NCBI RefSeq assembly: GCF_003334355.1
Contig: NZ_QOWP01000075.1
Length of the DNA stretch: 2,485 nt
Reading direction: 5' to 3' (one strand)
Origin: Escherichia coli
GTDB lineage: Bacteria > Pseudomonadota > Gammaproteobacteria > Enterobacterales > Enterobacteriaceae
The position numbers were made by a program, and so were the translations under genes. Positions 202 through 2,485 of the stretch are shown piece by piece. Positions within the stretch are counted from its first letter, which is position 1. Every line of letters starts with the position of its first letter. The notes under the pieces were generated by a model, which was not told the DNA's origin, did not search any database, and worked only from the letters and a program-made list of their open reading frames with translations.

Positions 202-2485
202 ATGGGTAAAGGAAGCAGTAAGGGGCATACCCCGCGCGAAGCGAAGGACAACCTGAAGTCCACGCAGTTGCTGAGTGTGATCGATGCCATCAGCGAAGGG
301 CCGGTTGAAGGTCCGGTGGATGGATTAAAAAGCGTGCTGCTGAACAGTACGCCGGTGCTGGACACTGAGGGGAATACCAACATCTCCGGTGTCACGGTGG
401 TGTTCCGTGCCGGTGAGCAGGAGCAGACACCGCCGGAGGGGTTTGAATCCTCCGGCTCCGAGACGGTGCTGGGTACGGAAGTGAAATATGACACGCCGAT
501 CACCCGCACCATTACGTCTGCAAACATCGACCGTCTGCGCTTTACCTTCGGCGTGCAGGCACTGGTGGAAACCACCTCAAAGGGGGACCGGAATCCGTCG
601 GAAGTCCGCCTGCTGGTTCAGATCCAGCGTAATGGTGGCTGGGTGACGGAAAAAGACATCACCATTAAGGGCAAAACCACCTCGCAGTATCTGGCCTCGG
701 TGGTGGTGGGTAACCTGCCGCCGCGCCCGTTCAATATACGGATGCGCAGGATGACGCCGGACAGCACCACAGACCAGCTGCAGAACAAAACGCTCTGGTC
801 GTCATACACCGAAATCATCGATGTGAAACAGTGCTACCCGAACACGGCACTGGTCGGCGTGCAGGTGGATTCGGAGCAGTTCGGCAGCCAGCAGGTGAGC
901 CGTAATTATCATCTGCGCGGGCGCATTCTGCAGGTGCCGTCGAACTATAACCCGCAGACGCGGCAATACAGCGGTATCTGGGACGGAACGTTTAAGCCAG
1001 CATACAGCAACAACATGGCCTGGTGTCTGTGGGATATGCTGACCCATCCGCGCTACGGCATGGGGAAACGTCTTGGTGCGGCGGATGTGGACAAATGGGC
1101 GCTGTATGTCATCGGCCAGCATTGCGATCAGTCGGTGCCGGACGGTTTTGGCGGCACGGAGCCGCGCATCACCTGTAATGCGTACCTGACCACACAGCGT
1201 AAGGCGTGGGATGTGCTCAGTGATTTCTGCTCTGCGATGCGCTGTATGCCGGTATGGAACGGGCAGACGCTGACGTTCGTGCAGGACCGACCGTCGGATA
1301 AGGTGTGGACCTATAACCGCAGTAATGTGATGATGCCGGATGATGGTGCGCCGTTCCGCTACAGCTTCAGCGCCCTGAAGGACCGCCATAATGCCGTTGA
1401 GGTGAACTGGATTGACCCGAATAACGGCTGGGAGACGGCGACAGAGCTTGTGGAGGACACGCAGGCCATTGCCCGTTACGGTCGTAACGTCACGAAGATG
1501 GATGCTTTTGGCTGTACCAGCCGGGGGCAGGCACACCGCGCCGGGCTGTGGCTGATTAAAACAGAACTGCTGGAAACGCAGACCGTGGACTTCAGCGTGG
1601 GTGCGGAAGGGCTTCGCCATGTACCGGGCGATGTCATTGAAATCTGCGATGATGACTATGCCGGTATCCGCACCGGCGGGCGCGTGCTGGCGGTAAACAG
1701 CCAGACCCGGACGCTGACGCTCGACCGTGAAATCACGCTGCCATCTTCCGGCACCACGCTGATAAGCCTGGTTGACGGGCAGGGGAGTCCGGTCAGCGTG
1801 GAGGTTCAGTCCGTCACCGACGGCGTGAAGGTGAAAGTGAGCCGTGTTCCTGACGGCGTTGCTGAATACAGCGTATGGGGGCTGAAGCTGCCGACGTTGC
1901 GCCAGCGCCTGTTCCGCTGCGTGAGTATCCGTGAGAACGACGACGGCACGTATGCCATCACCGCCGTGCAGCATGTACCGGAAAAAGAGGCCATCGTGGA
2001 TAACGGGGCGCACTTTGACGGCGACCAGAGCGGCACGGTAAATGGTGTCACGCCGCCAGCGGTGCAGCACCTGACCGCAGAAGTCACCGCAGACAGCGGG
2101 GAGTATCAGGTGCTGGCCCGCTGGGACACGCCGAAGGTGGTGAAGGGCGTGAGCTTCCTGCTTCGCCTGACCGTGGCAGCGGATGACGGCCGTGAGCGGC
2201 TGGTCAGCACGGCCCGGACGACGGAAACCACTTACCGCTTCACACAACTGGCTCTGGGGAACTACAGGCTGACAGTCCGGGCAGTAAATGCGTGGGGGCA
2301 GCAGGGCGATCCGGCGTCGGTATCGTTCCGGATTGCCGCACCGGCAGCGCCGTCGCGGATTGAGCTGACGCCGGGCTATTTTCAGATAACCGCCACGCCG
2401 CATCTTGCGGTTTATGACCCGACGGTACAGTTTGAGTTCTGGTTCTCGGAAAAACGGATTGCGGATATCAGGCAGGTTGAAACCA
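202..2485 (+). CDS. J: Phage tail tip / host-specificity protein J (central tail fibre), N-terminal ~761 codons; 3' end lies outside the window
   Basis: ATG at 202 is preceded by an in-frame stop at 196..198 and a GGAG at 190..193. Frame 1 is then open for 2284 nt to the window edge, with a third-position G/C bias typical of coding sequence. The translation begins [34 protein letters not shown]..., which I recognise as lambda gpJ. Gene order I then J with a 60-nt spacer matches the lambda tail operon. Absent from the ORF track only because there is no stop codon in the window. Confidence 0.95.
2050..2340 (+). other. Fibronectin type III-like beta-sandwich module within J (about aa 617..713)
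   Basis: Translated segment [28 protein letters not shown]...[34 protein letters not shown] shows FN3 hallmarks: a Pro-rich start, a conserved Trp in the predicted B strand, and the tyrosine-corner-like pattern NYxLxVxAxNxxGxxxxPS. A second module with the same opening pattern ([17 protein letters not shown]...FEFWFS) starts near 2341 and runs off the window. Confidence 0.55.

Follow-up and report, generated by a model that had tools for sequence, protein, structure and literature searches.

The window, by which we mean the whole stretch of 2485 nucleotides analysed here, had been read in a preliminary description as part of a lambda-like J gene. This raised the question of whether it is identical to J of reference lambda or represents a prophage-derived allele with scattered substitutions, and whether, in the second case, the substitutions differ between the hub and FN3 regions in a way that reveals a recombinant mosaic of the kind regarded as common at lambdoid tail-fibre loci.

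The window comprises the I–J junction and the N-terminal two thirds of J, very probably from a lambda-like E. coli prophage or temperate phage. J starts at an ATG (202–204), and its frame stays open for 761 codons, up to the window end. In phmmer searches the product matched the solved lambda gpJ chains 8iyk_J and 9e7m_Ja with residues 1–761 on 1–761 (E = 0, 1724–1725 bits), and J carries the gpJ annotation in the nearest records. The gene sits directly after I, the relatives have the tail operon order H-M-L-K-I-J-lom, and the counterpart of 1–141 is annotated as I or tail assembly protein in all matching records. Within J, the Pfam domains FNIII-A_GpJ, Phage-tail_3, Ig_J and Ig_J_second follow one another in this order (E-values of 5e-13 to 4e-43). 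The features of the window are as follows:

1–141, plus strand: 3′ end of the tail-tip assembly gene I, last 46 codons; the translation is the lambda gpI C-terminus, ending in ...GGQVVVIGR before the stop codon at 139–141
1–303, plus strand: lambda-identical tract (3′ end of I, spacer and J codons 1–34); its right edge is the sole significant change-point against lambda
158–181, plus strand: G+C-rich hairpin in the I–J spacer, GUGAAACCGCC-UGCG-GGCGGUUUUG, followed by UCAUUU and then by the GAGG ribosome-binding site of J
202–2485, plus strand: J (tip attachment / host specificity protein), codons 1–761 of about 1132–1165; the gene exceeds the window
457–822, plus strand: FNIII-A (Ig-like insertion in the hub), J residues 86–207, Pfam PF24801 FNIII-A_GpJ, E = 4.8e-41
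1189–1695, plus strand: hub core, Phage-tail_3 domain, J residues 330–498, Pfam PF13550, E = 3.7e-43
1330, plus strand: G-to-A substitution (V377M); every other base of the window recurs in at least one further allele, this one in none
1648–1908, plus strand: HDIV beta-sandwich (OB) insertion, J residues 483–569, boundaries according to PMC10721106
2029–2343, plus strand: FNIII-1 (Pfam Ig_J), J residues 610–714, PF24421, E = 4.3e-41
2347–2484, plus strand: first half of FNIII-2 (Pfam Ig_J_second), J residues 716–761, PF24489 model positions 2–47 of 105, E = 5.5e-13, truncated by the window end

In the structure of lambda gpJ, an Ig-like insertion occupies residues 72–215 and a beta-sandwich insertion in HDIV residues 483–569 (PMC10721106). 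The lambda tail structures place the hub domains first, then FNIII-1 and FNIII-2, with the alpha-helical shaft, the central straight fibre and the receptor-binding domain further downstream (PMC10721106, PMC11101478), and the receptor-binding part of J is therefore absent from the window. By homology, codons 1–761 would build the trimeric tail-tip hub, including the FNIII-A and beta-sandwich insertions, as well as the first FNIII domains, by which the tail tube is closed, and the J protein of the window probably acts like lambda gpJ in tail-tip assembly.

The I–J spacer (142–201, 60 nt) is identical to that of lambda and folds with a minimum free energy of -21 kcal/mol (z = -2.78). Its hairpin bears the label 'terminator' in the record of phage Ayreon; it was not called by a simple terminator scan, and a promoter/terminator scan of the window gave nothing above the shuffled expectation. 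At 158–181, the hairpin would sit inside the Q-antiterminated late operon. An antisense ORF of 533 aa (802–2403, minus strand) lies in register with the J codons and exists because the J frame has just three TTA/CTA/TCA codons (325, 577 and 802) and a GC3 of 0.73; as a gene it was rejected, being a codon-usage artefact. Lambda J has a fourth codon of this type, at 1132, that J of the window lacks.

The window aligned to positions 15304–17788 of lambda J02459 without gaps or indels, and this alignment, together with the gpJ match over residues 1–761, bears out the reading as a lambda-like J. Pairwise alignment to lambda J had been proposed as a check, and the two sequences were not 100% identical, hence the allelic difference is real. 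It amounts to 91 substitutions over the 2485 positions (96.34% identity; 66 transitions and 25 transversions), which fall on third codon positions in 73 cases, on first positions in 13 and on second positions in 5. Altogether 87 codons differ from lambda, 73 of them synonymously and 14 nonsynonymously, and the amino acid identity of J over residues 1–761 is 98.2%. In the direction from lambda to the window, the replacements are I35V, M169V, Y307H, T368V, V377M, S490R, A519T, S527Q, N529S, E560G, E608D, T659A, S664R and Q752R. That the window might simply be lambda, in its reference or laboratory form and free of allelic differences, is suggested by its first 303 bases, which match J02459 exactly, but this is excluded by the 91 substitutions from position 304 onward and by the lambda-derived records (lambda, DE3, HK629/630, and the imm21 and imm434 hybrids), all of which stand at 96.4% identity to the window.

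Of 5426 complete E. coli genomes, 4613 contained at least one match to the window, and the median among these was three copies. In all there were 15,436 E. coli places with a match, and 247 records from the complete E. coli genomes had at least 99% identity to the window. The nearest was the gpJ WP_000515713.1 of strain EM18-18-42 (NZ_CP063473.1 1202863–1206360; allele L002), with 99.8% identity and 5 differences. It was followed by IMG/VR prophage contigs with 9–10 differences, and J of phage phiSTEC1575-Stx2k (OQ243220, WCJ00196.1) was 99.6% identical, with 11 differences over the whole window. An exact copy of the whole window was found in none of the collections searched, the relatives cited differing by 5–11 bases, and the literature on phiSTEC1575-Stx2k yielded nothing relevant. 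The suggestion of a prophage-type allele with scattered substitutions was thereby confirmed, given 91 mostly silent changes and closest relatives that are E. coli prophage gpJ genes at 99.6–99.8% identity. We consider the window, with a probability of about 0.93, to represent an ordinary natural prophage allele of lambda J, its host and phage being judged from relatives 5–11 bases away.

The prophage that carries allele L002 (NZ_CP063473.1 1190662–1217146) directly adjoins appY-ompT-envY-ybcH-nfrA, the genes near which the cryptic prophage DLP12 lies in K-12. It has a frameshifted portal gene and an internal stop in a tail-fibre assembly gene. Among plasmids, the best match to the window reached 97.5%. 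A record named 'Campylobacter phage CJLB-4' (MW057783.1, 48,361 bp) scores exactly as reference lambda, and this E. coli phage gene is also matched by plasmid records under the names Stenotrophomonas and Paenibacillus; such matches are probably due to carry-over of lambda DNA into the records.

The protein encoded by the window was used as a tblastn query, and the best 80 matches supplied a panel of 65 gapless alleles. In this panel, which over-represents relatives of the window, the distance of 91 between window and lambda corresponds to the 15th percentile of the pairwise distances (median 105). For six of the 14 amino acid differences (M169V, T368V, A519T, E560G, E608D and Q752R), no more than 6 of the 65 panel alleles besides the window have the lambda residue, lambda itself counted, so that the rare state is that of lambda and the window follows the consensus. 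Seven further differences are common polymorphisms, and only M377 is private to the window. Lambda alone has M169, T368 and E560 among the 65 non-window panel alleles (window positions 706, 1303–1304 and 1880). At the hub residues 169, 368 and 560, the outlier is reference lambda and not the window.

The window differs from the gpJ gene of EM18-18-42 by G1330A (V377M) and by four synonymous changes at 555, 1167, 1200 and 1605. G1330A was seen in 0 of the 65 panel alleles, was absent in 7875 matching places across the 5426 complete E. coli genomes (69-mer around 1330) and, as an exact 36-mer, had 0 matches in each of IMG/VR, the GTDB representatives and the JGI metagenomes. The site is otherwise invariant in thousands of copies, and three of four distant solved homologues have valine at the counterpart of residue 377. 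The base may be a mutation private to this allele; otherwise it is a sequencing error. The replacement is conservative, and for an allele sampled for the first time a lone singleton is nothing unusual. One could also suppose that the source of the window is a defective prophage in decay, in which V377M would reflect relaxed constraint or a sequencing error, and a base found nowhere else at an otherwise invariant site would suit this explanation, as would the damaged portal and tail-fibre assembly genes in the prophage of the nearest relative. We regard such decay as unlikely, since the J frame is intact over 761 codons, the five differences from the nearest allele (four synonymous, one conservative) do not form a pattern of relaxed constraint, and any newly sampled allele can be expected to show one singleton.

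With an ordinary prophage allele as the preferred reading, the next point is how the differences from lambda are distributed. There are 0 in the first 303 nt and 91 in the following 2182 nt (4.2%), and in a 200-nt sliding window the identity stayed at 100% to about position 300 and ranged from 91.5 to 98.5% afterwards. The identical run of 303 bases was significant in a longest-run permutation (p = 0.0002). It is not merely a conserved stretch, because the panel alleles vary at 88 sites within 1–303; the probability that none of these sites shows a difference from lambda is 7e-7, or about 7e-5 when corrected for possible runs. Identity to lambda over 1–303 was found in only 3 of the 65 panel alleles, and in L002 the lambda-like tract continues upstream through I for about another 540 nt, the roughly 840 nt together containing 3 differences. 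The mosaic considered beforehand was thus confirmed only in part, with one breakpoint against lambda at about 304 (J codon 35) and none between hub and FN3. Uniform divergence with no breakpoints, which had been named as a refuting outcome, holds after 304 and fails for the window as a whole.

After 304, there was no significant second change-point (maximum chi-square on the third positions of 304–2485, p = 0.19). The best candidate, at about 1452 (codon about 417), lies inside the hub core and not at the hub/FN3 boundary (codon about 610); the density of third-position differences is 0.073 before and 0.130 after it, and the differences per 50 third positions after 304 have a variance of 6.9 and a mean of 5.0. 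A change-point test on all sites and with the identical tract gave p = 0.015–0.06, a value obtained because the 1–303 tract was included. Synonymous differences were distributed over seven structural regions as expected from the site numbers (chi-square p = 0.41), and the supposed contrast between the hub (residues 1–609; dS 0.134, dN/dS 0.074) and FNIII-1/2 (610–761; dS 0.201, dN/dS 0.045) did not reach significance in either dS or dN/dS. A simple two-parent chimera with its junction between the hub and FN3 domains could draw on the somewhat higher divergence in the second half of the window and on these two dS values. We hold it to be highly improbable nevertheless, as the best change-point after 304 is neither significant nor located at codon about 610, dS is not heterogeneous among the 7 domains, and several donors are needed to paint the window once the near-identical alleles are removed.

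This painting was done with a copying model. Without the four near-identical alleles, positions 1–268 were copied from L050 or lambda (0 mismatches), 269–915 from L009 (0 mismatches) and 916–2485 from L006 (6 mismatches), and when the L050/lambda, L009 and L006 donors were removed too, five donors were needed. As a donor, lambda was among the top three up to base 375 only; over the rest of the window its rank lay between 9th and 55th. The panel as a whole contained 63 distinct haplotypes and 324 informative biallelic sites, with a Hudson-Kaplan Rm of 135. Neighbouring panel sites were more compatible than distant ones, and the PHI-like statistic was 0.372, compared with a mean of 0.460 under permutation; not one of 1000 permutations gave so low a value (p < 0.001). 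Short-patch exchange among J alleles is pervasive, a qualitative result that is independent of the panel bias.

Exchange on a larger scale was seen downstream. In the full-length relatives, near-identity to lambda extends to about 130 nt past the window and then stops abruptly, at J codon about 806 (coordinate about 2617 in window numbering), and from there on the relatives are 24–70% identical to lambda per 100 columns. Alleles with at least 99.4% identity to the window carry at least three C-terminal modules; the modules of L002 to L007 are as follows:

L002, L003 and L005: module of the 1165-aa J
L007: J of 1159 aa, 72% amino acid identity to L002 after residue 761
L004: J of 1137 aa, 78% amino acid identity to L002 after residue 761
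L006: 98.4% identity over the window, 1165-aa module as in L002

The start of the module swap is seen from 14617 of L002 onward and also in L003, L004, L005 and L007, downstream of the window-homologous stretch. These C-terminal swaps are the exchange expected at lambdoid tail-fibre loci and agree with a published account of natural J homologues, about 1200 in number, highly similar and mostly from prophages, in which the phylogenies of whole J and of the specificity region are discordant (PMC6646904). Mosaicism typical of such loci, as the preliminary description had envisaged it, accordingly applies to the population of alleles and to the C-terminal modules beyond the window, and not to a hub/FN3 junction. 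Like its nearest relatives, the source of the window probably carries a non-lambda C-terminal module.

Against lambda, the J part as a whole has a dS of 0.148, a dN of 0.0097 and a dN/dS of 0.066 (Nei-Gojobori, NG86), and dN/dS is below 0.3 in every domain. For instance, FNIII-A has a single amino acid change (M169V; dN/dS 0.025), and FNIII-1 has a dS of 0.213 and a dN/dS of 0.041. Purifying selection is strong throughout J of the window. The nonsynonymous differences are uneven over the seven regions (p = 0.02), because the HDIV beta-sandwich insertion, with 87 residues, accounts for 5 of the 14 replacements (binomial P = 0.016, before any correction for having seven domains to choose from); its dN/dS is 0.18. 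This insertion also contains a cluster of six differences from lambda in nine bases (1779–1787; S527Q and N529S), and its loop 526–529 is dimorphic, being of the GSGN type in 32 of 66 sequences and GQGS or GQGN in 31 of 66, with a rare GNGN.

Such a concentration in a surface domain of the hub might indicate that the amino acid differences are adaptive, through host range or evasion of defence, and the fact that S527Q/N529S is a multi-nucleotide dimorphism at intermediate panel frequency points in the same direction as the uneven nonsynonymous differences. This is very unlikely, however, as the dN/dS of the HDIV insertion is still only 0.18, the binomial P is uncorrected, and the known host-range determinants map to residues 960–1132 (PMC6646904), beyond the window. 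A link to the HepS abortive-infection trigger on J was considered and rejected, the trigger lying outside the window at residues 902–933 (PMC13043305). It is highly improbable, if conceivable, that the HDIV cluster with its GSGN/GQGS loop marks an exposed domain of the hub that is subject to balancing or diversifying selection, or that V377M has a functional effect; if HDIV were under such selection, the agent might be contact with the cell surface or a host defence that senses the tail tip.

On our reading, the 91 differences from lambda are ordinary standing variation, overwhelmingly synonymous and built up under strong purifying selection. They belong to a very large pool of prophage J alleles that swaps short patches by homologous recombination, and one patch boundary against lambda is visible at about position 304. 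As a routine allele of the best-studied phage tail-tip gene, the window matters little, and the gene, its domain structure, the allele group and the recombination between J regions in natural homologues have all been described already. A by-product of the comparison is the tempo of change in the conserved part of J, with a dN/dS of about 0.07, fine-scale patches, and large module swaps only after codon about 806. In addition, reference lambda carries several rare residues (M169, T368 and E560), a point to keep in mind when structures of lambda gpJ are used as templates for prophage J proteins.

With lambda gpJ (J02459 15505–18903, AAA96553.1; structures 8IYK, 8K35, 8XCG and 9E7M), J of the window has in common the location after I and the Pfam domains, and it differs by the 91 nucleotide substitutions and 14 amino acid changes given above. 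The last third of lambda gpJ (from codon about 806) is about 53% identical to that of the nearest full-length relatives, which are 33 residues longer. The J genes of EM18-18-42 and phiSTEC1575-Stx2k are flanked by the I gene and spacer as in the window. The natural J homologues of Maddamsetti et al. 2018 (PMC6646904), a study focused on the specificity region 960–1132, which the window does not reach, come from Enterobacteriaceae, are prophage-borne and recombine between J regions, and the window is one more such allele.
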